This document shows, in pieces, positions 3,001-63,996 of a DNA stretch of 64,000 nt. Both the position numbers and the translations under genes were made by a program. Numbering within the stretch: the first letter of the stretch is position 1; every line of letters begins with the position of its first letter. The notes beneath the pieces were generated by a model that did no database searches, was not told where the DNA came from, and saw only the letters and a program-made list of their open reading frames with translations. The DNA is taken from assembly GCA_017499595.2 (NCBI GenBank), contig CM039003.1, forward strand, positions 3,534,001 through 3,598,000, in the 5' to 3' direction. This DNA comes from Psilocybe cubensis (lineage: Eukaryota).

Positions 3001-6000
3001 GAGGCATCTTGACAATTCTTTGCAAATAAAAAACTCGGTTTCAACTTTCTATCCGAGTGTTGTCAAAAGTGGACCTACGTATTTTTGGCACCTGATTCAA
3101 AAACCGCAGAACATCCCGACGTGGGATCATCCTCCGACTTACTGCAGAAAGCTGTTACTGTCTGGAGAGTATCACTGTTATCCTGACAACCCAGGATTAC
3201 CCAATCAGATGATATCCCAACGCTTGAAAGGAGGTTGGACGGTCCCTAGCATTAAAGTAAGTCATTTTTTTCAGGTATCAACACCACTACACCCACATCC
3301 AGTGCAAGCAATCCAAATGAGTTGTCATTGGCAGCATCACCGCCATTTGGAGCACTCTCGTCAATAGGGTCGTCTTGTAAATCCCAATCAAGGTCTCCAT
3401 CGGCTGGAGGATTAGGAAATAGATCAGCCTACTCAGTGAAAATGTCAAAGAAAAGAATGTGTATTGCTTGAATCTGCGAACCGGATTGAACGGAGAAGTT
3501 GTCGATGCACCTTTTGGTGGTGCACTGATAAAAGTCTCATTGAAAAGTCTTGATAACGGTCAAAACATTATACTTACCAGCACAGCTGTTTCTCTTGCAT
3601 GAAACATGCATGAAATATACCGGTATCTCCGTAATCTAGAATATAGACAATTAATAAGTGAGTCACACGCGCAAGAGTATTCCACGCACAATCTCTGTCT
3701 TTGACAAAGGTGCCGGTTGGGCAGACCTAATAGTAGGAATAAGTTGTGGGAATTATTTGGGAGTCATTTTCATCAAACCTACATTATCATTACAGCTTAA
3801 AAACGACAGCGGCGTAAGTTATACAAAAATATAGGTTGATGTATTTATGCATACTTTTTTGATTGGTGTCCTATAAACTGAATAAATGACTAGAATTTAC
3901 GTGACGAAGATTCAGAATTATCTCACCGTCTACAAATTCCATTAAATTATGACGCCGAAATCAGTATAAATTTTCTACAGGGTAGAATTCCAAGACAAAC
4001 GTACACCTGCGCGGAAGATTAGGATTCAAATTATCTATTTAGAGTTCAAATCAGTTTGTCTCACCATTGGCAGTCAGTTGCTTCATCAATTTGCTCGCTG
4101 CTTAATCCAGACTGGCAGCAAAATTCTTTGTGCCCAGAGCTACACTTATGGCCTGTACCCCAGGAGTCACTTGCCAATGAAATCTCCCCCGCTGTTGACT
4201 ATTATGTCATTCAAGAAATGTCTGGAGCAAATTGATGACATACGTTCACAAACACCGTTGCAGAATGGTGCAGTACCTCTCCACTGACAGCCTTTCGGTT
4301 GCTGACTATCAAAACATTATAATCTGTATCATACAATGCGTCTTCAGATAAACTCACTTAACAGGACAGCAAACTGGCTGCCCAACAGATTTTCCTCCGC
4401 AAGCTAATGACATGGTTAGTTTGGTACCAGACACACCAGTGAAAGAGTTTCACGTACCGCTTGTTGGATTGGCTACAAATTGTATGTTTTTAGCACGCTG
4501 TCTATAGAATGAATGTAATAGATATGGATATACCAAGCTTTCCGTCAGTTACATCTGCGATCCTTTGTTTAATTGACTGAAATGGGAACAATGTTCGTAA
4601 CACACCAGTCATCTGCACGTATCCTGAGGGACATTTTGAACCACATGTACCCAACATACAGTTCTGCCCATCACCAGAGTTCAAATCATGAGCTTTAGGG
4701 ATGTTGCCGTCTAACATGAGTCAGCCACATGAGCGGAATGGAGACAAATAAACAAGCACAACCTTGAATTGAAATACCAAGTAGGGCATTGTTCGCCTGA
4801 ATATTGATGAATGGGTCAGACAATGTTGTTGATTATGGGAGAAAAAGACTTACCGTGGAGCTAAACGGCAGGTCAGCATGATTTAAACATTATCATAGTC
4901 TTATAACATTGGATTGCGTGAACAACGACTTACTCGAAATCATCCAGATCAAGTGCCCACACCATGAGGCCACCTACAATACATATATAAAATGCTATCA
5001 GTGCTCAGAGTGATAGAACAAACCTAGTCCAGCTCCTTTGGCCCATGAAACCTTCGCCTGAAATGTAACAGCGTCGTCATAGCTCACCCAATTGTCCTTG
5101 ATTAAAGAGAAATGATAACTAGTGTTTTCAACTCGAAGAAAAAATGTTGATGTACTCACATCATCATAAACAAGGTATTTCACTTGTGCTGTTTTATCGT
5201 ACACGGGAGTGCTATTGGACTGTGCAACTATTTGCTCTATCTCCGCAAAGCTTAGAATACCATCAGAAGCAGTACAGGCTACAACGAGATCAGCCACGAA
5301 ACATTCATTGTGAATAAGAGGGGACTAACGTCCGCCGGGCGCAGGACCAGAGAAATGACATCCCGGTGTGGTGCAAGTGGGATCAGTCAGTTGGAAGGTA
5401 CGTCCATAGAAACCCATGCCGAGAACAATTTTCTCGAGAGGTACCCCAACTCTTTGGAACAATTGAACGGACTGAACTATCTCAGTGAGATTTGTATGGG
5501 CCTGGACAACGCTTCCAATGTAGACATCCTTCTCGTCCCATACACCATGAAGATCGTAGGACATCAGGTTGACCCAATCGGCGTAAGAGAGTAGACCCAA
5601 GAGATCGTAGTGCTGCAGATACCAGAAGGACGAGGGTGCTGTGAATGTGATTCCAAAGGTATGACCTGAAGCGTCGAACTACAAATCAAGAATTGAGTGT
5701 TAATCATAGCGCTTCCAAGAGGGTTCAAATTAAGACCTACGGTTTCGCGCATAGTTTTAAAAAGAGCCACCATGTTTTCCTTATCAGCCGGTACACCTCC
5801 ACGCTCACAGGCCACTGAATTATGACGCCTCATCAGAAAGGACCGTAAAAATGGGGGACTAATACAAACCTGGGTATTCCCAGTCGCTATATGTCAATGG
5901 TGTGAGTTTGAGTCCTACTTCATATATAGATAACATACATATCTACCCCATCGAATCCATACTGAACCATAAAACTAAATTATTTAAATGTGAGAAACAT

Positions 6001-7354
6001 CCCAACAAGTGAGAGGCCCTCTACATACCTCACTAATGATTTCGCAAATGCTCGCTGATTTACCAAGCTAGATGCCGTATCACTAAAGACATGCTGAGTA
6101 GGTGGATCGTTGAACGACCAGCCCCCAACGGAGATATAAGTTTTGAGATTAGGGTTTGCCTGCTTAAGCCCTGTAAACGCGGTATAATTGGGAATGTCAT
6201 CAGCTAATGCTGGAACGACTTCAAATGTATTCTTCCCAATAACATAAGTTTCCGATCGTAGACCACATTGTTTGAAATTAACAATACTCACTGGATCAAT
6301 GGATGCAAAAGCATAGTTAAGGTGGGTATAGCCGGAAGCAGGTATATTCTGAGGGAACCTACGGTTTTCCAGGGCCCGATGGATAACTTGAAACATGTCG
6401 AACAGCGTAGCGCCTTACCATGCATCACAAACACGACTTGATGCCCTGTACTGTATTCAGAAATGGCTACACATAAAAAATACTTGTATTCATAACGTAC
6501 CATCCCTAAGAATTGATCAGCTGACAGAAAGAGAATCAGGGATACCATGAATACCTCGTAATAGCCGATAACCCTAGATGTTACATCGCTATTAACCCCC
6601 GTCGGTATCTTAGGCTGACCACAGTTTGGTCCTGTGCACCCAGTCCCACAAAAATCATCGGTTGTTCCGCACTGACAAAATTTGCCAAGTCCAACAAAGT
6701 CAAATAATTCGAACAATTGGAATACATACAAAGCCAAATTGACTGCAGCAGACGTTCAAAGCACAAATACTATTCCCGGGTGCAGCATTGGGGCCACATT
6801 CAGCAAGAGCGTCGCAGTTACTCAAGCAACCAACACCGCAGAAAGTGGAACCTGGCTAAGAATTAGAGTCAGGTCAAAGGTACAATTAATGAATATCTTA
6901 CCATATCCACAAAAACCGGATGGTCCACTAGAGACAAGGAATTAGCGACAGCAAGCATGGAGTCGAGAGTTTGTAAGAGATACCAGCAAGCGCCGTTCGG
7001 ACATGGGCGACCTGCCCCACAAGAACCGTCAAAACCGGGCGGCGTGATAGTGACATTGTTGCACGAGAGATTTAAATCCTGTCGTTTGTTGAAGTGGTTG
7101 GACGTTCGGGCAGAAGACGTGCGGTAATCCAAGGTTCGCGGTGCTGTCTGGGTGCTGCGAGGAGAATATGAGGCTGATCTTGACCTCTTTACGATGTCCC
7201 TTTTTCTCTTGTAATCAGCTGCTAGGTTTCGTCGATACCTTTCAACCGAAGGTGTAACATCAACAAGCTTGAGTGCAAAGACTTCAACATATGATAGAAG
7301 TAAGATGAGCGATACAATGCCCGCTAGTCCAGAACGGAAAAGCCGTAGTCGCAT
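1..7354 (-). CDS. Secreted GH18 chitinase, subgroup C / killer-toxin-like, with hevein (CBM18) modules and long C-terminal extension; multi-intron, 3' end outside window
   Basis: ATG at 7354 starts a signal-peptide-like MRLRLFRSGLAGIVSLILLLSYVEVFA. Cys-rich hevein-type modules (SCGAGRPCPNGACC, NVCCSQFGFCGTTDDFCGTGC). GH18 motifs YTHLNYAFASIDP, KTYISVGGWSFND, spliced YGFDGVDIDWEYP (about 5870-5965), VNLMSYDLHGVWD, KIVLGMGFYGRTF, NWVSYDD. Exon-like sequence continues to position 1. Confidence 0.92.
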
Positions 7355-8555: not shown

Positions 8556-11500
8556 ATGGCCTTAATGGCCCTCTTTTTGTTAGCATATTTTCTCACTTCT
8601 GGGAGAGCCCAAACACAGGCGACATTTTCTATATTCTCCAATGCATCCGACATCTATCCTCTCCCTTCAGACCCAAACTGCGCCAATGCACTTGCTACAC
8701 AGTTTCAGTGCGATAGCACAATTGCATTTACAATTCCGAGTTCTGCGTCACCTCTACCAAACCTCACCTCATCTGATTTGTCGTCGTTATGCACCCCTAC
8801 TTGCTTTTCTTCGCTTGCAAATACAATTAAAGACATCGATACGGTCTGTTCAGGATGGCCATATATACTGGGAGATACAAGCTACATCCCATCTTTTCCG
8901 TTTGTATTGAACATTTGGATCAAGCGGAACAAAGTATTGACAAACCGCCTCTCAAAATCTATAGGGTTCGCTGGCTTCAGTATCATTTAAACCTGGTATT
9001 TTCGAGCCAATCTAGTTAGCCACGTACCTCCCTAAACCAAAATTCCAGTCCTGTGTCATGTCGGGATCCACATTTTGTCTTAACATTGCTCAAGTGAGTT
9101 TGTCATGACAACTGCCTCGAGAGCGTGTGTGATTAAGACACTTTTTAGAATTCGACCTCAACAACCGATACCTCACTACTTACTTTACCGAAATCTGAGC
9201 TCTGCTCTACGTGTACCATTCAACCCTTAGCAGTTCAAATGGAAAGCTCCTTTGGGTGGGATTCAAATTTGTAAGTTATCATCTAGCTGGGTGCACAAAA
9301 TCTGATAATGTCCTGGGAAGCGTTCAAAATTGGACTGCGATACAGACTGAATGCGGAGTCTCGTTCGACAATACTATTCCACCGAGTCTTCTACTGAACG
9401 AAATCAATGCCAATGCTACAACATACAATGTCACTGCGTGAGCCAACATCTAACTTTTACACCATACTTTTTCTTAGCGTTGTTAATTTTACCAGGAAAC
9501 CAATGGTTGCACCAGCATCCGCAGATAACTGCGTTTTCAGTACCTATACAGTACAGGTACGCTGAATGCACTAAACGGTCCTGCAACTTATCCAACCTCC
9601 AAGTCTAGAACGGAGACACATGTCAATCCATTGCACAAAGTCACAGCCTCTCGTATGACCAACTAATATCGGTCAACGGGCTGGACGTCAATTGTACCAC
9701 GCTTCCAGCCGTTGGACAGCCCATATGTCTCCCTGGATTCTGCACCCTTTACACAGTACAAGCGAATGATACATGTGTTACGATTTATCAGGCAAACAAC
9801 ATTGGCTGGACACAGCTCATTGCATGGAACCCGTGTGTCTGCATGTTTGTAAACATCGTCTCTAGCTCTGAATCGTCGTTTCATGCATCTAGGCAACTTG
9901 ATAGCTATTGCTCCAATATCGATAGCCAAGTCGGGAAAGGGATATGTATTAGTCCGCCTGGGGGTGGATATACACCGACTACGACGGTGCCAATTGTCAC
10001 AGGTGACTCCATATCTACTAGGTTCGATCACGATGTTAAGGCATTTTGTCAAATTAGGGTCGCCCACTGCTATTGCGTATGGATTTTAAGTATTTCGAAA
10101 CAAATTTATCTGATGTAGCTAATGCAGTACACCTACTGCCGCAATCGCTCCAGGCTCTGACCGCGAATGCGGTCTTTGGTACCAAGCAGTGGCAGGAGGT
10201 GAGCCAGTGCTTTGTCAATGCTGGTACTTCGGATTTACCCCTGTTACAAGACACTTGCCCACAAATAGTACAGCATTTCCAAATTACGAACGACACTTTC
10301 TATGAGGTGAGCCATCTTCTCCACTTTATTTCCAACGTAAATTCGTAATTAATATTTACCGTGTAGTTGAACCCCTCTCTAGACCAAAATGTGAGTCGGC
10401 AGACCGTAATCTTTGGGTGTCTGTGTCTGAACACATTGTCACATAGTGCGATAATCTGCTAGCAGGGTTTGACTATTGCGTCGCCGCTTTTCAAGGTGTG
10501 TCTCGACGAAGATCATTCTATATCGTATACCACAATCTAAATAAATTTGTGAGAAGATACTTCTGAAACAACAACGACTCCTCTGCCTACATCCACCTTC
10601 GCGTCTATGATAAATTATTTCAGTGAGGATTGATCAGTAATAGGTGCCAAAACCTAGCACTGATACCTTTATATGATTCAGATGGCTCCGATTTCCCAGT
10701 GGGTACAGGATTTGCCCAGGTAACTACCACCGGAAATGTCAGCGCTTCCCCGGTGACCGTCCCACCAACTGCCCCTACTCGGACCCAACAAGTTATCATT
10801 CCCCCTACAATTGCCCCAGGAACGATAGATAATAGCACATGTCTTCGATGTAAGCCGTAAACTATCTAACAAGCTCTATACTCACTCGATTTCACGGCGT
10901 ACATGAAGACTACACTGTCCAACCGGGTGATACTTGCTTCGGGATTGAAGTTATATTCAATATCCAGGATAGTTGGTTCCATCAGTGGAACCCACAGGTC
11001 TGCATTGCTTTATTTCTACATGGCCAATTACGCGAGCTGAGACCCGATTAGGTCAACTCGGAATGCACTAACATAGAGGTGGAAAGACCGTGTTCTACTG
11101 ATCCCTGTAGTAATTCATGACTGACTACCACTTAGGTCGGACTGGCGTATTGTGTATATGGGCCGATTACATTCACGACTCCCATCATCACGCTTCTACC
11201 AACATCGACTGTTGCATCCTCGACTGTCTCAGCTTCTAGCCCTACCTCTGGGATTCCATCAAGCACTCCGACGAATATTGCGAGTGGTACGATCACAACG
11301 GGATGCTTAGGTCTGTCCAGTCTGTAAGCTCCTTCAGCTCGCCCTATTAACGTCTTGAAAAATGTCAGAATATTACACAGTTCAGTGCGTCGCTGTATTC
11401 TTCATTGATCAATCGGCAACAATTAAGATTCATTCACAGATCTGGTGATTTCTGCGGAAAGATAGACGATCAATTCGGGATCACACTAGACCAACTGCTT

Positions 11501-12406
11501 ACTTGGAATCCTGAAATGTAACATTCTTTCAGTTCCTTTTTAAGTCCTCATATTAACGTCAGAGCTGAATAGTAATTCTGGATGTGAGCCTAGGCCTCTA
11601 ATTCAGCGTCTTTATTTCGACTGACAGGACCTGGAAGGCACAAATATTCAAGTAGGTTTGGCGTACTGTGTCAGCGGCCCAGCGAGCACAGTTTCTTCCA
11701 GTTCAACACCTGTACCAAGTCCAACAGCCTCTGGAACAATGTAAGCTGCCAGCGTGTCTAGTATCTCGTGATATGACTGATCGAAATGGTTGCAAATAGA
11801 ACCGTCGGATGCACTGAATACTACACCGTTGTGTAAGTTCAATTTAAAAATTGCTTGAGTCGTACGTTAACAGTCCACCAGCTCAGGCGACTCATGCCCA
11901 GCGATAGAGTCAAAATTCTCTATAACGTTTGCGCAATTCCAACAATGGAATCCAGAAGTTGACGCTAACTGTGAGTCGGCTCCGCCATAAAAGGCTCACC
12001 ATCTAACCCACACGCACATAGGCGACAATATCTTCGTTGGGCTTCAATACTGTGTTGCTGGTCGTGAGTATCCAAACAACGCAACCATATAATCCATATA
12101 CTTACCTTGATCTAGCGGCGTCCACAAGCACGATCACCACTTCCCCAGCTGCAAGCCCAACGGCAAGTGGCACAATTACACCGGCACAGGGGTGCAAGCT
12201 ATATTACACCACAGTCTCTGGAGATTTCTGCTTCAAGATCGAGACCCAATTCAATATCACCTTGGCGCAGTTCTTGGAATGGAATCCCGAGATTAATTCT
12301 GATTGCACTAACCTTCAACTGGGGCTCGAAGTAGGTGATTCGCAGATCCATCCATGTCAAAATGCTGATGGCCGGACATTACTAGTACTGTGTTTCTGGT
12401 CCTTGA
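8556..12406 (+). CDS. Secreted multi-LysM chitin-binding protein (about 7 LysM domains), multi-intron
   Basis: Signal peptide [18 protein letters not shown] and a Cys-rich N-terminal domain, then repeated fungal LysM units such as YTVQANDTC...LIAWNP and [52 protein letters not shown]-stop, separated by S/T/P linkers. Confidence 0.92.
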
Positions 12407-12432
12407 GAGTGGCCTTTTTTTTGATATATACA

Positions 12433-12533
12433 GTATGAGGATGAACACAATGAACACACACTGCTCATCTACCAAATTTTCTCTTGTCTGATATCACCCA
12501 AATCTAAATCACTGCCTCGTAAGCTGAGTGGGT
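12433..12533 (+). repeat. 101-bp direct repeat, copy 1
   Basis: gtatgaggatgaacacaatgaacac...gtaagctgagtgggt recurs at 18495-18595 with about 5 mismatches. Confidence 0.9.
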
Positions 12534-45158: not shown

Positions 45159-47048
45159 GTGTATGGGTGGACACGCTTACCGTTTAATGCTCAGCGACAA
45201 CGATAGTGTCGTGTACTGTCAGCTCGATACGCTCTTTTCTATGCCCATTGCACTGGTTTTGCAATGTGTGTATATTTGCACCCTCCCCATCTCCATTGTG
45301 CACTAATATCCACATCCCACTTCATATTCCAACCACCCCCGGCCAATAAATCGTTCCCTCCGTACTCCCGACACCTGCACGACCTCGTCGCAGGGCATAG
45401 CGTCTTCGAGCAGGTAGATTCGCACTCAGTTGGAGTGGCCCTCGTTTAGATCTAAGGTCCAAGGTCTAATTAGCTTCATTTCTAGTGTTACTCCACCACC
45501 GCGTCGAGTCGCATCATGGGTGTTCCTTCGCATTGCATCGCATTCGTGCATATCGTATCCCATGGCTTCTCCTTCTTCCCATCCCATGCCTTGAACGACA
45601 TCATAGCAACCTTGGCATTCTGTTGCTTGTCATTCCCTGTCTTTGGCCGACTCGCTCTGCATCTTCAGTTGTCGTTTTTCGAGCTTGTCACCCACATCTC
45701 CATATCCGTGATTTCGAAACCGGATTTCGAATGTCGTGTCACATTACACATCCGACCCTGCTTGTTACGTTTTCCTTGCAAGTCGGAATGTTGATTTGAA
45801 ACTGGATTTTAAGCACTTAGACTGCAAACATTAGAAGCTTGAGTATTGATTTCGAGGTGGGAGCTTCGTACTTTCTTTGAGAGGTGTCAGATATAATTAG
45901 GCTTGTTCTATACACAACGAGACTGAGGAATGCAGAAGACAGACGACATTTGCTGGGCTATTGAGGTTAAAGCTTTTCATTTCCGTTCAATGCTTACCAT
46001 CCACTGTTTTTTGGAATTTCTATTGCTGTTTCTGGTTTTCCATATGCGATTTTCTTGATTTTGTTTCATCAAACTTGTTTCTTTTCTTGATTTTTCCGGT
46101 TTTGCACTTCCTGTACCGTGTACGAAGTTGGAGTGTGCGAGTGAGTCCCCACATTGGGGCAACGTTTCTTATGACACAATTTTCCGTTGAAAATGCGAAG
46201 TGTCTGGCTTGAGATTTCGGTCACTACAAAAATAGCAAGGTTAGAACCTTAGTACGTAAATCGGTGTCAGGTTTCATAATGAACTACTTGGTCGTTAGTG
46301 CATACACCCTGAGTCGAATAACATACTTTGGTGTGGTTGTACTGCGCCCTAGGCATACTTTAGTATCAGATGGTTTTCTTGTAAGTAATGTAGTACTACC
46401 CGGATTACATGAACATATATACCAAGTCTAATTCCCTTTCGCAAAACCGTTGTAATCATTTCTCAAATTTCTTTGTTTCCAACTTATCCCGGCTGCTTCG
46501 GCTTTAAAATAATTCGTATAAATGTACCGGAAACACCCACAGCAAGACATATACTGTGTTGCTATGCTTTGCCATGGATAGGCCAATATAAAATCAGTTT
46601 AATGTTCAATTTTCTGGAATTATTTTGCCCTTAAATATCTGTTGAAATACCTGCTTTAGGTAAGCCATCTTCAGAGAAACCACCCTAAGGCAATACCAAC
46701 ATGTATACTGTTGGTTTTGATAAAACCACGACTTGACCACGGCTTTACCACGACACCAGATTAAATTTACCACAGTCTGTGCTAATTTTATCAGAATCCT
46801 GGGTAATAGGCTGTTCGCACACTCAAAATGTAAGTACTACAATGTAAGAAAAGCTACAATGTAAGAAAAGGTCCGAAACTAGTGAGTACAACTCCATTTC
46901 TGAGTGTTCGCATTTTCAATGGAAAATCGTGTTATAGGTACAACTGCTTTTCTCACGTTTTTATTTATTCTCTCGCAGGACTTCTTCTCTTATTAGAACG
47001 TTGATTTTCTATACGTTAACCACAGGACTGCTTACAAGCATACTGGCT

Positions 47049-47082
47049 GGGGGGTTTAGGGTTTAGGGTTTAGGGTTTAGGG
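47049..47082 (+). repeat. Interstitial telomeric array: G6 followed by (TTTAGGG)4
   Basis: Read directly from the sequence. Confidence 0.95.
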
Positions 47083-47084
47083 TG

Positions 47085-47120
47085 GGAGCAAGCACCGAGC
47101 GAAGCGAGGTGCGAGCGACT
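47085..47120 (+). other. GA-rich DNA hairpin with GCGAAGC mini-hairpin, copy 1
   Basis: GCACC-GA-GCGAAGC-GA-GGTGC, conserved in copy 2 at about 63866-63900. Confidence 0.7.
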
Positions 47121-47148
47121 TGTTTAAACTGTGAGTTAAATGGAAAGA

Positions 47149-47213
47149 AGCCAGAGGGCTGTTGGGGGATCCCAACAACCAGCCCTTTCGTCTTTATAGA
47201 CTCTTCAGTGGCT
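47149..47213 (-). ncRNA. Type I hammerhead ribozyme, copy 1
   Basis: Minus strand: AGCCA CUGAAGA GUCU-auaa-AGAC GAAA GGGCU-gguu-GUUGGG-aucc-CCCAAC-AGCCC UC / UGGCU. All core nucleotides and three stems are present. Predicted cleavage after CUC, between 47154 and 47153. Confidence 0.93.
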
Positions 47214-47907
47214 ATTCTTAGAAGGAATGTTCTAGACATCCGATGACAGCGCGTGAAGTGATGCTGCGCAGCTGTCATGTATCTTACCGACTATCACAAA
47301 TCTGTCAATGTTTATTGTCAAGTTAGACAGGTCTCTGATGAACAGAGTGTCACGGGTCGATGTGGCACATGGTAACCTGTCAAAAGTGGATCCAACACTT
47401 TTGTTCTTTGACATCGTGGGTTATTGACTGTGATGTGAATCACATGGATATAGAGTACTCTGGTTACGTGGCTCCGAGTAACCGCGACATGGGAATATTC
47501 ACATGTCTAGAGTATAAATAGCTTACCTGGGTCCTTACCTAACAATCAAACAATAGACTGATTGATTGTTGTGAATCTTAATTGGACAGTTCATGATCCG
47601 GTCCATCAAAAATGTTTCCACGGTACTAAGGAACTTTTCCCGAAGTACTAAGTAACTTTTCCCATGTACTAAATTAGATCCGGCCCTTCACAATCACATG
47701 CCGTTCGGAAGTTCACACGCCTACCTTACTTCCTAAGCTTATTCCCCCCCAAAGGGGGGGCCTTCGTTGCATTGGGCCTCCTGTTCAGAATTCCTGAAAT
47801 CTGATGCCAGATTCGGATTTCTTGACCCCAAAAACCCCCAAATACACTTTCAAAATATTTTATTTTGTACATATGGAGGTGCTACGTAATTAAATGTGTA
47901 TTTTACC

Positions 47908-48224
47908 GAGGCCGGCCTCCAAATTGATCGAGGCCATTGGAGGCCGGCCTCCAAATTGATGGAGGTCACTGGAGGCCGGCCTCCGTCTAAAAATAACTTT
48001 TGACAGGGACTGGAGGCCGGCCTCCGTCCAAAAATAAACAGAGCGAGGCATCCGAGGCCGGCCTCCATCTAAAAATAAACAGTGACAGGCACTGGAGGCC
48101 GGCCTCCGTCTAACAATAAACACGTCAAGGCCACCTGAGGCCGGCCTCGATTTGTACGCGCGTCGTACGTGCGAGTGGAGGCCGGCCTCCGCTCGTACGC
48201 GCCAGCAACTGGAGGCCAGCCTCC
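47908..48224. repeat. Array of 9 GGAGGCCGGCCTCC-type palindromes, mostly ~41-bp spacing
   Basis: Copies start near 47908, 47939, 47971, 48012, 48054, 48094, 48137, 48177 and 48211 (last is a variant). Confidence 0.9.
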
Positions 48225-49164
48225 AGTGTGGGTCCCAACCAGATAGGTCACGTGAATGTACGCGTGTCGTTGTTGGTTTACTGCTCGTCGCCGCCTGTCG
48301 CTGCCCCCACCACCTTCGCTCGCCGCCCACAATGACACGCACATTGCTGCGTGTTGTTGCACTGCCACCCCCGCGCCTTCGCCGCCGCCGCCGACTCCCC
48401 CACCCCGCCGCCGCCCCGCCTCCACTTGCCGCCCACAACGACTCGCGGCAGAGGAATCGTTTGTGTTTGTTTGTATTTGCTCACACTATCCCTACCCGCT
48501 CTTCCGCTTTCGCTCATTCTCCTCCGCTGCCGCCTCTTCCTCCCGGCACCCGTACTCACAGCAAACAACGGTGGCCCGCCCGCCCCCGGCCCTGACATCT
48601 ACCAACAACTGCAACAACAACAGCAACAGCAGCACATCTCATTGCACGCCACATACGCAAACCGTTCCTCGCTGTACGACCACCTCTCACATCAGACCCT
48701 CAACACCCTCGAGCTGTTACTGCTGTTCTCATTGGCGCACGAGCGTGCAGGGTTTGCGATGCATATGTTTGGAATGTCCTGCCAAGTTGAGTAAGTACAT
48801 GCCTACTTCTCTCGTCACCGCCGCCATCCCATACCATTCCGTCGTCAAGGCCGACATCAACAACCGTGAGGGAGGGCCGCGGGAGAAGTGTCATGATATC
48901 CTTTTTGGGTTATCATGGCGGACAGTTGTAAGTTATCTACGCCGCTGACATTGCGCTTTTACCCTTTAGCACTTCAGCGTGTCTGCGTTTGGATGGGGTG
49001 GTGCGACCCATGTCCACTGCCAGTAAAGAGGTCAGTCATTTCAACAGCCTACATCGACACCCTGTTACCCACTGTTCGTTCTATCCTCCAGTTTCCTTCA
49101 ATGCCGCCATTACGCGTGTCGGGTGCGTTTTATGGGTGAGAGAAAGGCAACCTGGTGAGCGCAG

Positions 49165-49790
49165 GCAGATTGAGGGCGGTCTGGTAGGGACAAATTGCGA
49201 TGGCAAGCAACGACGAGCTGAGGATAGAGGGAGCGTGCTGGCCAGGTGCGTCAGTACTGTAAATACGGGTTGTGGAGATTTGTTTACCCTCGTCTCCTTG
49301 TTGGCAGTCATGCCAGCTTCCTTTCATTGTGTGTCTACACCATGAAAACAAATCCAACGCGGGCCACACAGCAAACGAAGGCGGATTGAGGGCGGTCTGG
49401 GAGGGGTGGGTTGCGATGACGAGCAACGAGTTGACGACAGAGAGGGGACGCTGGCTAGGCGCGTCAGTGCTGTCAATACGGGTGGTGGAGATTTTTACTT
49501 ACCATCGTTGGCAGTCGCGCCAGCGTCCTTTCGTTCTGTGCGTACACCATTAAAACGAATTCAATACATGGCAACACAGCGAGCGGGGGCGGTTTGAGGG
49601 CGGTTTGTGAGGGACAGGTTGAGATGGCAAGCAACGACGAGTTGATGATAGAGGGGAACACTGGCTAGGTGCGTCAGTGCTGTCAATACCGGTTGTGGCG
49701 ATTTTGCTTACCGTCGTTTCCTTGTTGGCAGTCGCATCAGCATCCTTTGATTCTGTGCGTACGCCGTTAAATCAAATCCGACACATGTGA
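49165..49790 (+). repeat. Three degenerate tandem ~210-bp units
   Basis: ttgagggcggt...agcaacga...gcgtcagt(a/g)ctgt(a/c)aatac...gttggcagtc recurs from about 49170, 49385 and 49593. Confidence 0.8.
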
Positions 49791-52751
49791 TGACACTCAC
49801 CGTAGTGTCGCGTTCAGGGGGCACGTTGCCGACGAGAGGCTGCGTCGTCAGCATTGCTCTCACGTTGAGCTGCGCAGCAATGAGCGGGAGGTGAGCACCC
49901 AGCGCGTCGTTCATGGAATGCAACTCACCATGGTGCATCCTTGAAGCTGTTCTGTCAATGTCAAGCATACCGTCAGCGCCGTTGTCAGAAGCAAATACAG
50001 CACGGCTTACCATCTCGAGCAACTTGCTGTACAGAGCCGGAAACAACGAGGGAAGCGTGGGGGAAGAGGTCCTTTGACTGACCTGAAGGCTGAAGAGGCA
50101 GGGAAGAAGAGGGGATGAGGGGATGAAGGATGCCAGCAAGGTGCGTACCCTTTATATACCCTGTCGTGGTTCGACTGTTACTAGTACGCCTGTTACATGT
50201 CGTAAGTAGGCCGAAAATACAGATTTTTTTTTCGTGTCGCTTGTTAGTGTATATTCGGGTTATGCGAGGTGCGATTGGTGTGTTGAGATTCGGAATTGGA
50301 TAGGTTTTCTTGCTTGAATGTTGGATTTGAGGTCAGGGTGGTATGGAATAGTTGAAGAAAATCATCGTACGTCTAATCTATCAAACCGAATACGACGTGA
50401 AATGCTCAACAGCAAGTGCTCGATAATGCATTCATTGAATTTCACTCGAACATCTAATAAAGATTTGAACACGAGAGGACACAAGTACGTTTTTAGTTAT
50501 CTTTAATCCTGAATATCTATACCAGAGTACATTTTTGCCTTGGAATACCCCTGAGCAGAGATAACGAAATAACATGAAATCTCTCAAAACCATCTTGAAA
50601 GTTGCAAAGCCCTCGATGACTCGGGAACAGGTACGTACACCCAGACCTCGAACTATACGCACTCAACACACAACTCGCGTTCTAGCACTCCCGGAATGCG
50701 GACACTTGTTCTGGAGTCAACACACGGAATACTCATCTTCTGCTCTTCTGCACAGCGACAAATTGGACGCCGTTGCTTCTGCTAGTGGATGTGCCGTTAT
50801 TGCTTAGCCGAGGGTGAGCGAGGGTGTTTGGGCTAGTACAGGGCACATGGAGCCGAGTTGTAGGGAAAACAATTGGAATGAGGTGCAATGCCGATTTGGG
50901 AGAGGAGGTGGAGGTGTGGTTGGGTCGGATTTGCTGCGGCAGTTGTAACATTTTGGCCGGGTGGGTGGTTGTGATTGTGCGCGTATTTCTCGTATGCCCT
51001 GTTTCAAGCAGACGCGCAGGGATACAACTGCACTGAGGTCATATTTCCAAGGTCTGTGTACTCTCTCTTCATCACTTGCTAAAGTAATCACCATCTTGTT
51101 AGGATGGTATGCCCCAGGAGATTGAGATTCACTGCAATGATGCGACATTTGGTGAGCATTGTCACCTTCTCATTTAGAGTTTTCTGGCTTGAGATACTTG
51201 CTATATTTTAGTGAGTACATTACATCACAAGATCGACCGTTCAACCGCGTTTATAGGTATTTATTTAGTTGTGGGAACAAGAGCGGGCGATGAGATTGAC
51301 ATGGGGGGGTGAGTATTTGTTCCATTACTTCCGAATCCGATATTGATATCCTTACTACATCTCTTCGTCTATTTAACCGTGTGGGTAAGTCTTCCACTTT
51401 CAAAGTGATGTAATAATATCGAACTGCCGCACCGAAATCTCCAGATCTCTGTGTCAGTGTTTCTACATGCCTTCGTCCCCTCTGCGCCCGTTTTAAATAT
51501 TCTGTATGATCCCAGCAACTCGGTACTGTGGGGATACGTCAAACATAATGTCGTTTAGGTCAGAAATCAAGCTAATATTGATTCAAGGATACAAACTCAC
51601 AATTCAGCATAGAATCCTCGCTCATTCATTTGTCATTCTTGCCTTGATTAAGCGGACTTTGACTGACTCTAAGGAAGCAGCTTCAACACAATCTACGGCC
51701 ATTTGAAGTTGAGTAACATTCATATTACTGCCAATTATTGTATTTTATTCCTCATTATTGTAGTCAAACCTATCGTACATCGATGTATAAACTAGCTACT
51801 AGTATGATAGACACATATATACATATCTATCATCTTGCAGACCTCGATAAAAGTTCAAAAATTCTAAATTTAAACAAGTTCTCCTTGAGTCCCAATGTAT
51901 TCATTCACTAGTGAATTCGCAAGAAGAGCATATTAGATTAGCCATGGAGACCCTGTAACGGAGTTATACCATAGTTTCAAACGCACCTAAACACAATACT
52001 TCGCCGCAATGATGCTGTGAGCCGAAGGAAAATTAGCACCACTCCTCCCCCCAAATCACGAAATTACACAATTTCAAACATTTGCTGCATCTAACTGACA
52101 TTCAAACATTGCATAAAGGAGCCGGGTACCTCCGAAGGCAAGATGTAAAGAAGCTGGATGCAAGTCAATCGAAGTTGAACATGTATAAAAACATTACATT
52201 CCGTTTAGACGCACCTGGGCACAAAACAAGGAAATCCGGGTCTGCCATGAGGATCCTGAATAAAATGAAATTATACATTGGAAGAGATTATGTGAGATAA
52301 AATAAACGAGTCACTCACACGGCATCCAGATGAAAATTGGGACTGGCATTCGTTAAGCGCCCAAAACGTCTCTAAGACGGTACTTTTATATATTTAACAC
52401 ATATCGTCTCTATTTCCCCAAACATCAGTGACAAAGCAGTGCATTAGGAAGGGCAGAGGGATAAATACATGATATACAGAGCTACATGCTATTCCAGCTC
52501 CAATTCCGCGTTTCTAGCGTATGTCCATCAGCAATACCGGGGCCAAGTAGGTAATGATCCGTAGTGATACGTAATTCTGTAGTGCCCATAGTAACGGTCC
52601 CATTTGGGTAACACACACTGATGTACCTGTAGCTTGGTACCAACGTGACATGGTACTCTGTAGTGATCTGTATTGTAACGCGAGTGCTGTGTAGCGGCGT
52701 GTAGCATGCTTACCATGGTCCATACCCCTCTGTATACAACTGACATACAAA

Positions 52752-53111: not shown

Positions 53112-55853
53112 CTACCCTTCTGGACCGTAATCTAGTTCCTCCTGTGGGATAGAATGGAGAGTCATCCTATAAGGGTTGGGGGGGTTCTTCGTAGGCCTCA
53201 TAATAGCACTGATTATGGAGATCTAAATGATGCAAAGAAAGAAATGAATAAAAAAAGATACACACCATCCTTCCTCAGCCACTTCCCTACATAAGCGAGC
53301 CAAGCGAGGACCTTGGTTCAAGGTATCCTTCTCTGCCTCTGCTGCAACCAACATGCAGGCATCATACCTCAGGGAGTACTCCTCTCCCTTGAATTCAATA
53401 CCCGAACACGGACCACCTCTTGCAGGGTCAATCCCATCCCTCCACTCCTCAAGACAGTTGTGGATCTACAGCAAAATGCTTGTTAGCAAGGCAGTGCCAA
53501 TAGCAGGAGAGAAATCAGAACTACACAACTGGCCACAAGCGCAAATGCTTTGTGGGGAAGCGATGTCTTGAAGAAATCCGTCTTTGTCTCCAGACCTTTG
53601 ATGGGGACTGCAACCCCTTTTGTAGGATGGTAGAAGAAGTCCAGACAGATCTTCTTCACAAAAGGATGTCCAAATGGGACATTGTGATACTGGAAACAAA
53701 TCAATGAGTGGTAAGCCAGGTAAAATGGACGGCGAACTCACTCGGGTTTTGGCAACACCCCGGTGGTATTTACCATTGAGTAGCCAATATGCTACCCTGT
53801 CCTTGATGTATTCGATCTCCCCCATCTGATTTTCAAACATATTGGGGTTCGCGGCGATGACCTCCGACGGGACTTCGAGGCCATACGCATTTTTGACCAG
53901 GGGTCTGATCATCGTCTTCAGTCTTCCCCGGAAGGTTGACGCGTAGACAAATGCCTAATGAGAACAGACACGTTAGTACGATATCCTTAAAAGAACACGC
54001 TAAAAATATACCGTTACGGCGGTATTCCTGTCTAGGAGCGTTTTTTTCTCTGCAAAGTTATGTAAACCAATTAACTAAAATCACAGAAGACAGAACTTAC
54101 TATCAGGCAACACTTTATCCGTGTTCATTCTTTCAAACACGGTTACTGCCATCTTCACACATCCATCGGCGACTAATAAGTGATTTTCCCGAGTGGGAAA
54201 GGGGACCTCCTCTACTACATACAGGCACATCAGTTTGCGTGCAATTTTGAGCACATCTTTCCAGTAACCAGTAAAGGATGCAACTGAATGCTTGGATACT
54301 TCCCTAGCAGAAGAAGTACTGGACTTCTTATGAGCGATGTGTGCCTCACCAAGCACCTCATCATCGTCAGATGCTTCGTTGTTCTCCCTTGTCAAACCTT
54401 GGGATACGGCTCCTTGCGAAACAGCCGCCTTGCGCAATGCCTCAGGGCGAGGTGGCTTGTTCGCCCGATTACGACGACGGTGTTCTTGAAGAACATCCTC
54501 TACTTCCACAACCTATATCAATAATACATTAGCTAGACATTAAATACAGCAGAGAAATGATTACATGGGGGGAAGGCTGGCGGAGCAATGCCCTTGCTCT
54601 CCTCTCCTCTTCATCATCGGAAACTTCATCAACCACTGTCAAACATAGGTGGTAAGCAAACACGACATAAAGGTGGAGTTAAACCAACGCTGGGCAGCAG
54701 GCTCTTCATCATCTTGACCCGCGTCGTCGTAACCTTCATCACCGTCGACATATTGGAGAGCTTCTTCATCCCCAATATTCTCTTCATCAATTCCTTGCAT
54801 GCATTCGTCCCCTGATGCTTCCTCAGATCGCCTTTCACCGTCACTATCCCCCTCTTCCTCCTCCTCATCTTCCTCCTGCTCTATGCCTTCGTAATCTTGT
54901 TGCTCCTCCTCGTCTTGATGGCTGATGCTAGCCTCTTGGTGGGCGTTATAGGCTGCTGGATGCACTGGCTGTTGTACGGGGGCATGTTGTGTTACAGGAT
55001 GCACTGGTTGTTGTACGGGGGCATCGTAGTATTGGACAGAATTCTCTGCCGCAGGGGCAGCGTAACGCTGAACAGGATTTGCTGCGTGTTGTACAGGGCG
55101 CGGGACAGGATGTGCTGCATGTTGTACGGGGCGCGGGACAGGATGTGCTGGCTGTTGTACCGGAGCAGCGGGGCGCTGGATGGGGGCAGTGGGTCTTTGG
55201 ACAGCATGATCAAGCTCTGAGTGCTCCTGATTTCTCTGAGCTGCACGTTGGATCTGGACAGGAGGGGGGGCACCCTGAGATTGTCGTGGGCTTGGTTGGA
55301 CTTGTTGGACATCCCAAGGAGCAACTGAAGGCGTTGGCCTTGGTTGCATTTGAATAGGGGGACCTACATGCGACACAACGGTAACCTAGACGTGCTTGGA
55401 AGATAGCAAATTTAAGATTAGAACAGTAGACTCACCCCATTGCGAGGTTTCTTCAAGGGAGGCGCCATCTCATTTTCAGGCATGGCGCTAGTATCCACAT
55501 TGGCGGCCCTTGACTTCCTCTTCCCAGCCTTCTCGAAGTCAATAAAAATGATGTTAGATGTTTTCTCCTGCCGAGCATTTACTCCACCAAGACCACGGGT
55601 GCTTCGGATAGGACGGCCATTGGGGTCTTTTTAATAAGGAGTTCAGTGAATCTCAACAAAGAAAATGCTAGTACAGACCTGCTTCAGGAGCCTGAGGTGG
55701 CTCGTTTTCTGCCACGGAGCTCGGACCCTGTTCAACCTCTTGTCCTAGATGGATAAAACATTAAGTATGCGGATGTAATGAGGATATATAGATGATACCT
55801 TCAACCGTGGCATTGACAACCGCCTTTTTCTTTTTGGATCCTTTAGGTGGCAT
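53112..55853 (-). CDS. Large protein with Q/P-rich and acidic tracts and a C-terminal DUF6532-like domain
   Basis: Start MPPKGSKKKK (NLS-like), PVQ repeats, E/D tract, then WKDVLKIARKLM...VPFP, STFRGRLK, PFGHPFVKKICLDFFY and IHNCLEEWRDG. DUF6532 assignment is from motif recall, not a search. Confidence 0.7.
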
Positions 55854-56647: not shown

Positions 56648-59007
56648 CTACATATTTACAACTTTGACACCACGGGACGGGGGGAAGATTTGAATCAAAG
56701 ATGTTGTCGGAAAAGTTGGGAATGTATCACCGCGTTTCATACGAGTAACGGGATATTTATGTACAACGCAAATATCCTTGTCTATTGATCGTATCCTGAA
56801 TATAATCCCCATTGAATCGCCCTCAAGCGGTGTAACGAAGTCGTCCTTTTTTACAGGATGAATTGGAAACAACACTGATTTCGGTAATGTCAGTGTACGT
56901 CCCAGTAATGCTAGGTGGGCAGTATCGTCGGTAAGGCTGAGAAGTTCCATCGCCACTTGATGGTCGCCCTTGGATTTGTCTACGACTTTTAATCGTAATC
57001 CTTTCAGCTTATCGTATTTCGTATCTAGCCAGTGAGCGACGGTTGAGGGTAGTTCTGCGATTTCCACCGCCGAGTGTACAGGTATTGCTGAATACGGATT
57101 CCATGCAGGAGACAGAAAACTTGCTACTGTGGACGGCATTGGAGTTGCTCCACCAGAAGGCCCGGGGTCTTGAGCGGAATTTATATGTTCTCGGTTGCTT
57201 GAAACAATGTCAGTAAGCACCTGACAGTCAACGAATCAAGTGAAACCACATACTGTATAATTAAATGTGATATTTTAATACGTTCCACCCTCTGGTTACG
57301 AGCTTCCAGCTCAACGTCTGCAAAGCCGTCGGGGGTAGTGCTTTTAACGATGCCATAGTACCCCTTGAATGTATTATTCCCGACAACGATGACACTCAAA
57401 CCTATATAGACGTCGTTGTGGTCTCTTTCTCCAAGCTTTGACGAATGACGCTTTCGCGGGCGAAGAGTAGCATGGGCAGGGGGGACGTAGAATATGACTG
57501 TGTGGATGGGCACAATGACCTGAAAAATGTGTTGAACACTACTGAGACAAAGAGAATGACAGTTCACCTACTTCGCGTTCGTGCTCTGGGGCGATAATAC
57601 AAACAGATCTTCCATCAAAGTCTGACACCCATCCATGGAGATCTTTGTGATCCCCTTCAACGACTTCAACACTATCGCCTATCTGGAAAGCTGCACGTAG
57701 ATCGTGTAGTGCAACTGCTTGTGTTATACCTTGGGAGGGGATGTGCACTTCCACCTCAGCGTCAGAAACACTCTTGACCGTTCCAAAAAGACCTAAGTAT
57801 TCTCCACCAATAATTTTGACTCGATCATATCGTTTCAGTCGAGTCATGGAGATGGCTTTCGAGGCTTGCGCTAAGGTCTCCGTCGTTACAAATGGACACT
57901 CGCGAAATTGCTCCAACTCGGACGATGTTGGGAGGACATTGGAAAGATATTTGAGATCGATGGCGTCGAAATCCGTGATAATAAATCCATCCTGGAATAT
58001 CCTGTCGAGGTGCGATTTCTTGATGTTGTCCGGAGGTCTGGGGATAAGAACAACACTTTTCCGACCCTGGAATGTGAACACAAGGCCGGTAGCATTTGCG
58101 TAGGTCGTCCAAGCCTTACGCTTTCCAGCAACCTTGACCCACGATTGGTCTTCAGGGCGTGAGGGTGGGGGATGAGATAGGATCTCCATACATCTCTCCG
58201 AGGATAGCCTAACTAAATGTGTCGGATTAAGCTCTCTAACGAGGCAGGCTAACGTATGCGCATGTTGCATTGATGGCGCCTTGACGTAGATTCTCCCAGG
58301 AATTGAGGATTGAGCGAAGACAGACCGGGCAAGGATGATGGGAAATGTAGGGTTCGTTGACATCTGCATAATTTTGAAAGCGACGGCCTCTTCGCGTCCA
58401 ACCTATCACTCGTAAGGTGATCAATAAATGCTGACTGAAGACTTATATTATTTTTGCGTACCTTGCAACCTATTTCATACATGATATCAGTCGCGGAAGG
58501 CATATAATTATTATCACCAAGTCCTCCTGGTTGGGGATTGCCATATTTCTGTATAAGTTCTCGTGAACTAGATGGCTCTATATCATTGTCAGGACGAATT
58601 TTCATGCGTGAAGGCAGAAGCATGGGCAACAAATCGCTCCATTCATCAGCGTTATCTGTATTTTGCATGGCATGATATAGCCGAGAGTGTGCAACACGTT
58701 CCTCATCCTCAGAGTATTCATCGTTATCATTCACTGTATGTCAGAACCCATTAGCATCAGTACATATTGAGCAGAATATATGTAAATTATTGGAACATAC
58801 GTAGTTGGCCCCCTTCATAATCAAGCTCTTCCGAACTTTCATCATCATCGGAAACCGCTGCTTCAATGTCTATGAAGGGATTAATGTCCTGATTTTTTGA
58901 GATCATAATTAAATTTCCCTGAAGTTAGTGATTAGATGGAGGGTTGGATTAGTACACACTGTGCGGTTGCCTAGGCTGTCAAGTCGTCTGCGTTTATAAC
59001 TAGACAT
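56648..59007 (-). CDS. Divergent Spt5/NusG-family paralog (acidic N-terminus, NGN, several KOW motifs; no C-terminal repeat region)
   Basis: NPFIDIEAAVSDDDE, NGN-like YEIGCK/VGREEAVAFKIM...PGRIYVKA, and KOW motifs YDRVKIIGGEYLGLFGTV, FQIGDSVEVVEGDHKDLHGWV and IGLSVIVVGNNTFKGYYGIV...VELEA. Confidence 0.85.
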
Positions 59008-63789: not shown

Positions 63790-63866
63790 GGGTTTTAGGG
63801 TTTAGGGTTTAGGGTTTAGGGTTTAGGGTTTAGGGTTTAGGGTTAGGGTTTAGGGTTTAGGGGGGG
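63790..63866 (+). repeat. Interstitial telomeric array, 10 units (TTTAGGG, with one TTAGGG and one TTTTAGGG)
   Basis: Read directly from the sequence. Confidence 0.95.
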
Positions 63867-63932
63867 AGCGAGCACCGAGCGAAGCGAGGTGCGAGCGACT
63901 AGTTTAAACTGTGAGTTTGAAATAGAAAGAAG

Positions 63933-63996
63933 GCCAGAGGGCTGTTGATTGTTATCAGCAGCCAGCCCTTTCGTCTTTATAGACTCTTCAGTGGCT
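63933..63996 (-). ncRNA. Type I hammerhead ribozyme, copy 2
   Basis: Minus strand: GCCA CUGAAGA GUCU-auaa-AGAC GAAA GGGCU-ggcu-GCUGAU-aaca-AUCAAC-AGCCC UC / UGGC. Core is identical to copy 1. Confidence 0.93.

Follow-up and report, generated by a model that had tools for sequence, protein, structure and literature searches.

Two copies of a small module lie on the minus strand of the window (the whole stretch of 64,000 nt that was analysed). In both copies a type I hammerhead ribozyme comes first, and it is followed by a spacer that contains a hairpin and then by (CCCTAAA)n, the C-strand form of a telomere-type repeat. The repeats begin 67-70 nt past the ribozyme, and thus are not immediately adjacent to it. 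The parts are listed here by window position.

47055..47082, minus strand: (CCCTAAA)x4, equivalent to (TTTAGGG)x4 in the plus-strand reading; forms the 3′ terminus of copy 1 of the element
47083..47149, minus strand: copy 1 spacer between the ribozyme and the telomere-type repeats, with a hairpin (GCACC...GGUGC) at 47112-47092
47150..47212, minus strand: type I hammerhead ribozyme, copy 1; core and helices read from the sequence, fold, descriptor and covariance model
47213..47735, minus strand: copy 1 non-coding body upstream of the ribozyme; about 40 times single-copy depth in the reads of a related organism
47736..48190, minus strand: further upstream part of copy 1; depth falls stepwise, with 41-nt tandem repeats at 47972-48131
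63794..63862, minus strand: about ten CCCTAAA units (one of them CCCTAA); 3′ end of element copy 2
63863..63932, minus strand: copy 2 spacer, with a hairpin at 63892-63872
63933..63995, minus strand: type I hammerhead ribozyme, copy 2; same parts as copy 1, recognized by descriptor and covariance model

Similarity between the two copies stops at the repeats, and the sequences beyond are unrelated. These two are the only TTTAGGG arrays in the window. They share one orientation, the one to be expected for a chromosome end somewhere to the right of the window. The element that carries copy 2 is cut by the window end, and its remainder lies beyond.

A Pfam search of the whole window found no reverse transcriptase (RT) domain in any of 110 open reading frames of at least 100 aa, and the same was true of 145 open reading frames of 45-99 aa between 47066 and 64000. 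The RT sequences of the metagenome relatives described below, searched against the window by tblastn, gave a best E value of 0.44 and no RT. The unit 47052-47735 has no open reading frame with a family match, and Pfam detected no GIY-YIG endonuclease among the window open reading frames. Copy 1 is probably a 5′-truncated fragment of about 1.1 kb without an RT gene.

Several other features surround the two copies. The 41-nt tandem repeats upstream of the copy 1 ribozyme (47736-48207, especially 47972-48131) each bear the palindrome GAGGCCGGCCTC. In the related organism this region has a read depth of about 200-1000 and shows many internal joints that skip forward or go back, and therefore the repeat number varies among copies. 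To the left of the unique flank of copy 1, at 46667-46934, is another repeat with a depth of about 300-700, compared with about 35-40 for single-copy sequence. Three tandem units of about 210 nt are found at 49146-49782, within a GC-rich stretch (0.566 GC over 48001-50000), and have no family match.

Two genes on the minus strand are situated between the copies. One, at 53226-53954, is a fragmented DUF6532-like gene spread over several frames with weak matches. The other, at 57184-58924, is an Spt5-like gene that encodes an NGN domain along with several KOW domains, and its nearest Atlas clusters are mostly short Basidiomycota paralogues. Both may be genes that lie between telomere-added element units. 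Far to the left, a GH18 chitinase is encoded over at least three exons (5001-6414, minus strand), with LysM-domain open reading frames adjoining (9609-12435, plus strand); such a pair is ordinary for a fungus and has nothing to do with the ribozyme element. By its gene content (GH18, LysM, weak DUF6532 fragments and Spt5) the window appears fungal.

Architecture and detection of the ribozymes

In copy 1 the 5′ strand of helix I, GCCA, occupies minus-strand positions 47212-47209 and leads into the core sequence CUGAAGA (47208-47202). Helix II (GUCU/AGAC, 4 bp, loop AUAA) follows at 47201-47190, and the core sequence GAAA is at 47189-47186. Helix III extends from 47185 to 47156, with about 12 bp and a 4-nt bulge on its 5′ side. 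U16.1 is position 47155, C17 is position 47154, and the 3′ strand of helix I, UGGC, is formed by 47153-47150. As both the 5′ and the 3′ end are in helix I, the ribozyme is of type I. Cleavage is predicted to occur between 47154 and 47153 in copy 1, and between 63937 and 63936 in copy 2. Secondary structural modelling suggests that helix I of copy 1 may be longer, reaching about 47223 and 47140 across a small internal loop.

Both copies have the elements of a type I core: CUGAAGA, the G10.1-C11.1 pair, GAA, the A15.1-U16.1 pair and C17, which is an H and not a G at position 17. Folds and model alignment agree that helix I is open and that helices II and III are closed by loops. For copy 1 the three-way junction is the minimum-energy fold, save that the pairing at the base of helix III is shifted in register; for copy 2 and the metagenome relatives it is within about 2 kcal/mol of minimum energy.

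The original prediction had stated that both copies keep CUGAAGA, GAAA, the cleavage triplet and three stems, and the core and helices read directly, together with the descriptor search reported below, bear this out. The positions it gave, 47149-47213 and 63933-63996, are correct to within one base. It had also described a 3′ piece of about 100 nt that cleavage would release. The geometry is right, in that 47153 to 47055 is 99 nt, and cleavage itself stays a prediction. The element hammerhead is probably an active self-cleaving ribozyme.

An alternative pairing is seen at the 3′ strand of helix I. Within 47140-47190 of the window, and within 4546-4594 of the metagenome relative L005, the sequence CUUCUUUC can pair with either the 5′ strand of helix I or the core GAAAG, and the pairing with GAAAG appears in the unconstrained minimum-energy fold of the relatives and of copy 2. 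The modelled GAAAG-paired form is possibly an inactive conformer.

The descriptor used in the search demands 4 bp in each of helices I and II, the core sequences CUGANGA and GAAA, a helix III that is closed, and UH. It matches the window twice, at the two ribozymes, and matched none of 300 first-order Markov simulations of the window. A loose pattern, CTGANGA...GAAA...TH, has 21 matches in the window, with 14.8 expected by chance, and this difference is not significant. A covariance model was also built from the five metagenome relatives alone, with the window sequences left out. It gives 65.9 bits for copy 1 (E 4e-16) and 50.5 bits for copy 2 (E 9e-12), and the third-best match in the window reaches only 11.1 bits.

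Comparison with Rfam, which was proposed with the original prediction, did not recover the ribozymes. At gathering thresholds there were no matches in the whole window, and none in nine related loci. The best model in E-value mode is RAGATH-1-hammerhead (RF03152), with 29.1 and 22.5 bits for the two copies against a gathering score of 56.3, and Hammerhead_3 (RF00008) gives 19.5 and 18.0 bits against 48.5. Both copies therefore fall outside every curated model by Rfam thresholds. What they have in common with the Rfam hammerheads (Hammerhead_1/3 of clan CL00010, and RF03152) is the catalytic core and the three-helix junction, and the RAGATH-1 model aligns all three helices of the window ribozyme.

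This raises the question of whether the two sites match the hammerhead consensus by chance, as the loose-pattern count and the lack of Rfam matches at gathering thresholds might suggest. Against this are the two matches to the descriptor with helices, the scores of the independent model, and the finding that relatives of the ribozyme are tied to an RT open reading frame. The odds of a chance match are negligible, and the descriptor simulations and the independent covariance model effectively refute it.

Relatives, covariation and genomic copies

Metagenome contigs were scanned with one pattern, made up of the core and the first bases of helix III, which returned 59 loci. Five full relatives of the window ribozyme are present in four of these (L005, L036, L053 and L055), all from soil metagenomes. 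A further 19 loci have a different type I hammerhead, and in the remaining 36 inspection by eye of the printed match and flanks revealed no hammerhead continuation with a closed helix III and helix I.

The relatives are about 71% identical to the window over the 3′ module. In alignment positions 17-51 (from helix I through the core and helix II to the base of helix III) all 35 positions are identical, 19 of them forced by the search pattern. Distal helix III, in contrast, is identical at 5 of 20 positions yet paired, and in the spacer 28 of 69 positions agree. A hairpin occupies the corresponding place in the spacer of the relatives, with one pair swapped from U-A to A-U, and CCCTAAA repeats come after the spacer.

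In three of the four loci, those long enough to include it, the module is about 860 nt behind a single open reading frame of 1183-1227 aa. The encoded protein matches RVT_1 with E values of 1.2e-6 to 2.4e-6 and 27.8-28.9 bits, just below the Pfam cut-off of 29.6, and has a DKN motif and YIDD (RT motif names such as DKN follow PMC13159263 and PMC8557442). RVT_1 is the sole Pfam match at E ≤10, and neither a second domain nor GIY-YIG was detected. In L055 two ribozymes are 4561 nt apart and define head-to-tail units of 4.56 kb; the upstream module ends in CCCTAAACC, and the next open reading frame starts about 40 nt on. It is through CCCTAAACC that the tandem units of the metagenome relatives are joined. 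L005 and L036 each have a partial ribozyme at the contig end.

The RT open reading frame has 338 relatives in the protein collection, some of them 62-63% identical and source-labelled Psilocybe cubensis. Precomputed domains of those proteins are PF00078, PF28514 and PF26215. The nearest Atlas RT clusters have the same three families, with Rotifera as the commonest phylum, which is a lead and not a clade placement. A PDB sequence search with the RT open reading frame gave no matches at E ≤1. As the window has no RT, the link of the window ribozymes to an RT is by way of relatives that are about 71% identical.

The second type I hammerhead merits a separate description. It is found in 19 contigs (L003, L007, L009, L012, L014, L015, L017, L021, L022, L028, L031, L032, L038, L040, L042, L044, L045, L046 and L051) and has a 6-bp helix I, GGUUAA/UUAACC, and a helix III of 7 perfect base pairs; an ATG follows about 15 nt downstream. 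Its helix II covaries, with the forms GUCU/AGAC, GGAU/AUCC and GUCC/GGAC. In the three contigs that were checked, the encoded proteins are those of phages (tail fibre, GroEL, endolysin and homing endonuclease). The core and helix II closely resemble those of the ribozyme of the fungal element. This likeness echoes a remark that hammerheads of fungal Penelope-like elements resemble bacterial motifs (PMC4209133).

The two window ribozymes differ at eight positions, all within 47178-47165 (distal helix III and its loop), and are identical at the other 55. Two of the changed pairs are compensatory, one from G-C to A-U and one from G-C to U-A. The further helix III changes from copy 1 to copy 2 are U.G to C-G, U-A to a C.A mismatch, and two in the loop. 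The metagenome relatives provide a third helix III variant. A MAFFT alignment (A2) misregisters helix III and the spacer hairpin between the window and metagenome families, and pairs were for this reason counted on a model-fitted alignment (A4). A4 contains nine matches, seven of them distinct, and is itself fitted to the structure; 97.7% of its pair cells are standard, and compensatory changes occur in four pairs, all in distal helix III, so that the covariation rests on three helix III variants. The other four helices never change on both sides and are therefore uninformative either way.

These data agree with two further points of the original prediction. One was that the changes in distal stem III are compensatory, with one C-A mismatch in copy 2, as the alignment of the copies confirms. 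The other, that the copies are diverged family members and not a recent duplication, is strengthened by the third helix III variant and by a read depth that corresponds to about 40 copies.

That depth comes from raw DNA reads of a related organism, mapped on 46600-48600 at 82% likeness; no public read run contains more than 0.55 of the sampled words of the window. Depth is about 1400 over 47069-47735 and about 35-40 in the flanking bins, which suggests roughly 40 copies of the element per genome. Joints from 47735 to 47052, 47056 or 47063 are present in 247 reads, and 488 loose-end reads have the same linker, with an agreement of 0.98. Position 47735 is a frequent 5′ end, and the linker there is a conserved, degenerate telomere-like sequence of 38 nt that leads into the TTTAGGG tract of the next unit. 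The joints through the linker and the TTTAGGG repeats thus show that units are arranged head-to-tail. The form of about 0.7 kb makes up roughly half of the 40 or so copies.

Other joints, 47883 to 47052 and 47440 to 47063, mark further 5′ ends. Upstream of 47735 the depth steps down to about 1000, 650 and 330, and then to about 40 beyond 48207, and at 48190 four contigs diverge from copy 1. The stepped depth and the divergence at 48190 are read as variable 5′ truncation, with copy 1 extending over about 1.1 kb. A total of 1020 reads run on leftward from 47052 into the longer TTTAGGG arrays of other copies. Chains of 5′-truncated copies joined by telomeric tracts are thus found in the reads of the related organism, and also among the metagenome relatives.

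Two organisms share an identical 276-nt unitig, 47179-47454, which begins exactly where the variability of helix III ends. Among the best-supported rows listed in the table of other letters, none falls between 47015 and 47558. The adjoining 240 nt vary as little as the core does, which points to recent spread and not to ribozyme-specific constraint.

The invariance of this adjacent sequence, as would be seen under recent homogenization, is one of three observations that could be taken to mean that the module is a decaying relic, i.e. a non-functional ribozyme within a subtelomeric repeat that is spread by recombination and not by retrotransposition. The others are that the window copies are interstitial and have no RT, and that copy 2 has the C.A mismatch in helix III. 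However, helix III stays paired by compensation in the comparison with the RT-linked metagenome family, where spacer and distal helix III are so different; all 16 pattern-free positions of helix I, helix II and its loop are identical between the families; and the fold is at or near minimum energy in all variants. The relic explanation is very improbable.

Somewhat better placed, and still unlikely, is the possibility that the element is a non-autonomous retrozyme-like one. Multimeric transcripts of its tandem hammerhead units, each about 0.7 kb, would self-cleave to unit length, perhaps be circularized, and be recopied in trans by the RT of a Penelope-like element (PLE). The unit 47052-47735 fits this in having no open reading frame with a family match, in its 40-fold depth, and in its sharp, conserved head-to-tail junction with the 38-nt linker. 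Reviews propose that PLEs or Terminons mobilize non-LTR retrozymes with type I hammerheads (PMC7761336). However, unit boundaries are not at the cleavage site: each window copy stands alone and stops exactly at the telomeric repeats, not at 47154/47153, and all head-to-tail joints run through telomeric repeats. The stepped depth upstream of 47735 and the other truncation joints fit 5′-truncated copies of a longer element, and the relatives carry the same module on RT-encoding units.

Two read runs were considered for transcripts. The listed RNA run (X19) has 0.05 of the sampled words. A run that is only guessed to be RNA (X23) gave three contig pieces, one of which touches the module (47076-47150) and stops a few bases short of the cleavage site, but contigs cannot show RNA ends. 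Within these sparse data no circular or unit-length RNA was seen.

Assignment and proposed mechanism

We interpret both sites as the 3′-terminal modules of insertions of an endonuclease-deficient PLE, of the Coprina/Athena kind by its published layout, and give this assignment a probability of roughly 0.8. Several of its components are directly observed, namely the motif, the layout, the RT open reading frame in the relatives, the multicopy head-to-tail arrangement and the common orientation. Coprina elements, which are fungal PLEs that lack an endonuclease, were reportedly described by Gladyshev and Arkhipova in 2007, and a 2017 paper by Arkhipova and coworkers is said to have described the Athena elements and Terminons that occur in bdelloid rotifers.

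Coprina and Athena elements are defined by a hammerhead near the 3′ end with reverse-complement telomeric repeats beside it (PMC8557442, PMC6431247). The repeats are described as immediately downstream of the 3′-terminal hammerhead, with 5′-truncated copies and head-to-tail arrays that have host genes between them (PMC6431247). In the telomere-associated PLEs of fungi and protists the hammerheads are reported to be of type I, with a large helix III, and to be stable in monomeric form, and a self-cleavage assay at 1 mM Mg2+ is given for the hammerhead of Serpula lacrymans (PMC4209133). Coprina is reported at chromosome ends in several fungi, and Coprina-1_Alen of Ascochyta lentis has been described (PMC13159263). 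The combination of a ribozyme with reverse-complement telomeric repeats is thus an already published PLE 3′ module, to which the window adds another example, and this context is absent from the original prediction; the exact hammerhead family may also be in published lists.

Besides the absence of an RT from the window, the RVT_1 scores below the Pfam cut-off, the low Rfam scores, the invariance of the sequence beside the core and the small number of helix III variants, further points count against the assignment to a Coprina/Athena-like PLE. The stretch of about 16.5 kb that separates the two copies has the appearance of ordinary genes, and 48208-48600, the sole part of it covered by reads, is at single-copy depth. 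In addition, a type I cut would sever the telomere-complementary tail from the template, which is a poor fit to a simple processing role.

The steps by which such a PLE could be added to a chromosome end may be outlined as follows. The element RNA would be the minus strand, and its 3′ end would consist of a monomer-competent hammerhead, the hairpin spacer of about 67 nt and the C-strand telomeric repeats. By extension from the published model, (CCCUAAA)n would pair with the exposed G-rich overhang of a chromosome end, and the 3′-OH of the overhang would prime a telomerase-related RT, whereby the RNA is copied onto the chromosome end. On the plus strand the expected product begins with (TTTAGGG)n and continues into the element in reverse complement, and both window copies look like this product. 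Telomerase would then re-cap the end, often after 5′ truncation, and the next addition would create a head-to-tail chain with telomeric repeats between units. PLE RT is reported to be able to initiate at internal RNA sites (PMC11167929), and therefore the repeats need not be the exact end of the element RNA.

The role of cleavage in such a scheme is less clear, and reviews state that the function of the hammerhead in PLEs is unknown (PMC7761336). With an EN+ PLE, hammerhead cleavage is reported to be dispensable in vitro and to have needed the protein (PMC11167929). Since a type I cut would detach the priming tail from the body of the RNA, cleavage is likelier to serve processing or switch-off than the making of a template. 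There is about an even chance that the hammerhead and the hairpin form a 3′ structure for recognition or for positioning of the RT, and that cleavage processes or disables read-through and tandem transcripts.

A far more speculative thought, and one that we hold to be very doubtful, is that cleavage is productive. The 5′-OH RNA of about 100 nt that it would release, with the helix I strand, the hairpin and (CCCUAAA)n, would then act as a miniature telomerase RNA, used in trans by a TERT-related RT that adds TTTAGGG to the ends of chromosomes or elements. The hairpin just 5′ of the template would in that event be a boundary-type element, a suggestion with similarly slender prospects. Such a small telomerase RNA, if true, would account for the telomeric tracts at the capped ends of truncated units, and the element would represent a living intermediate between retroelements and telomerase.

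Returning to the assignment as a PLE 3′ module, the window offers a clear example of a ribozyme with telomere repeats from a basidiomycete-like genome that apparently has TTTAGGG telomeres. Telomeres of this type have been reported for the basidiomycetes Stropharia rugosoannulata and Rhizoctonia cerealis. The match between the element repeat and the TTTAGGG telomere type fits a tail that is tuned to pair with the host overhang. With a monomer-competent hammerhead, three natural variants of helix III and a conserved hairpin, the element is therefore a convenient system in which to study the role of the hammerhead in PLEs. In genome annotation, interstitial TTTAGGG tracts beside the module would mark former chromosome ends.

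Comparison with known systems

The element resembles animal non-LTR retrozymes and hammerhead satellites in that these are also short, non-coding, head-to-tail units with type I hammerheads, and are presumed to depend on PLE RT (PMC7229834, PMC7761336). It differs from retrozymes in that its units are separated by, and end at, telomeric repeats and not the cleavage site, and it is known here from DNA.

The likeness to Athena elements and Terminons is in the reverse-complement telomeric repeats after a 3′-terminal hammerhead, and in the 5′-truncated head-to-tail chains with host genes between them (PMC6431247, PMC8557442). The rotifer repeats are different, (ACACCC)n or (TCACCC)n. The Terminon/PLE hammerheads are described as minimal variants, without helix III or loop-loop contacts (PMC7761336), whereas helix III of the window ribozyme has about 12 bp. 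Terminons are up to 40 kb in length with many extra open reading frames, whereas the metagenome relatives are 4.56-kb units with a single open reading frame.

Several features set the element apart from Coprina as well. Its repeat is CCCTAAA (TTTAGGG type) and not of the commoner fungal TTAGGG type. The window copies are 5′-truncated and have no RT, and one form of 0.7 kb accounts for about half of the approximately 40 copies. A conserved hairpin is present between the ribozyme and the repeats, and the passages at hand from the published descriptions mention none. What the element shares with Coprina is a monomer-foldable type I hammerhead whose helix III is large, a fungal, Basidiomycota-like host and, in the metagenome relatives, one long open reading frame with an RT and the DKN motif and no endonuclease.
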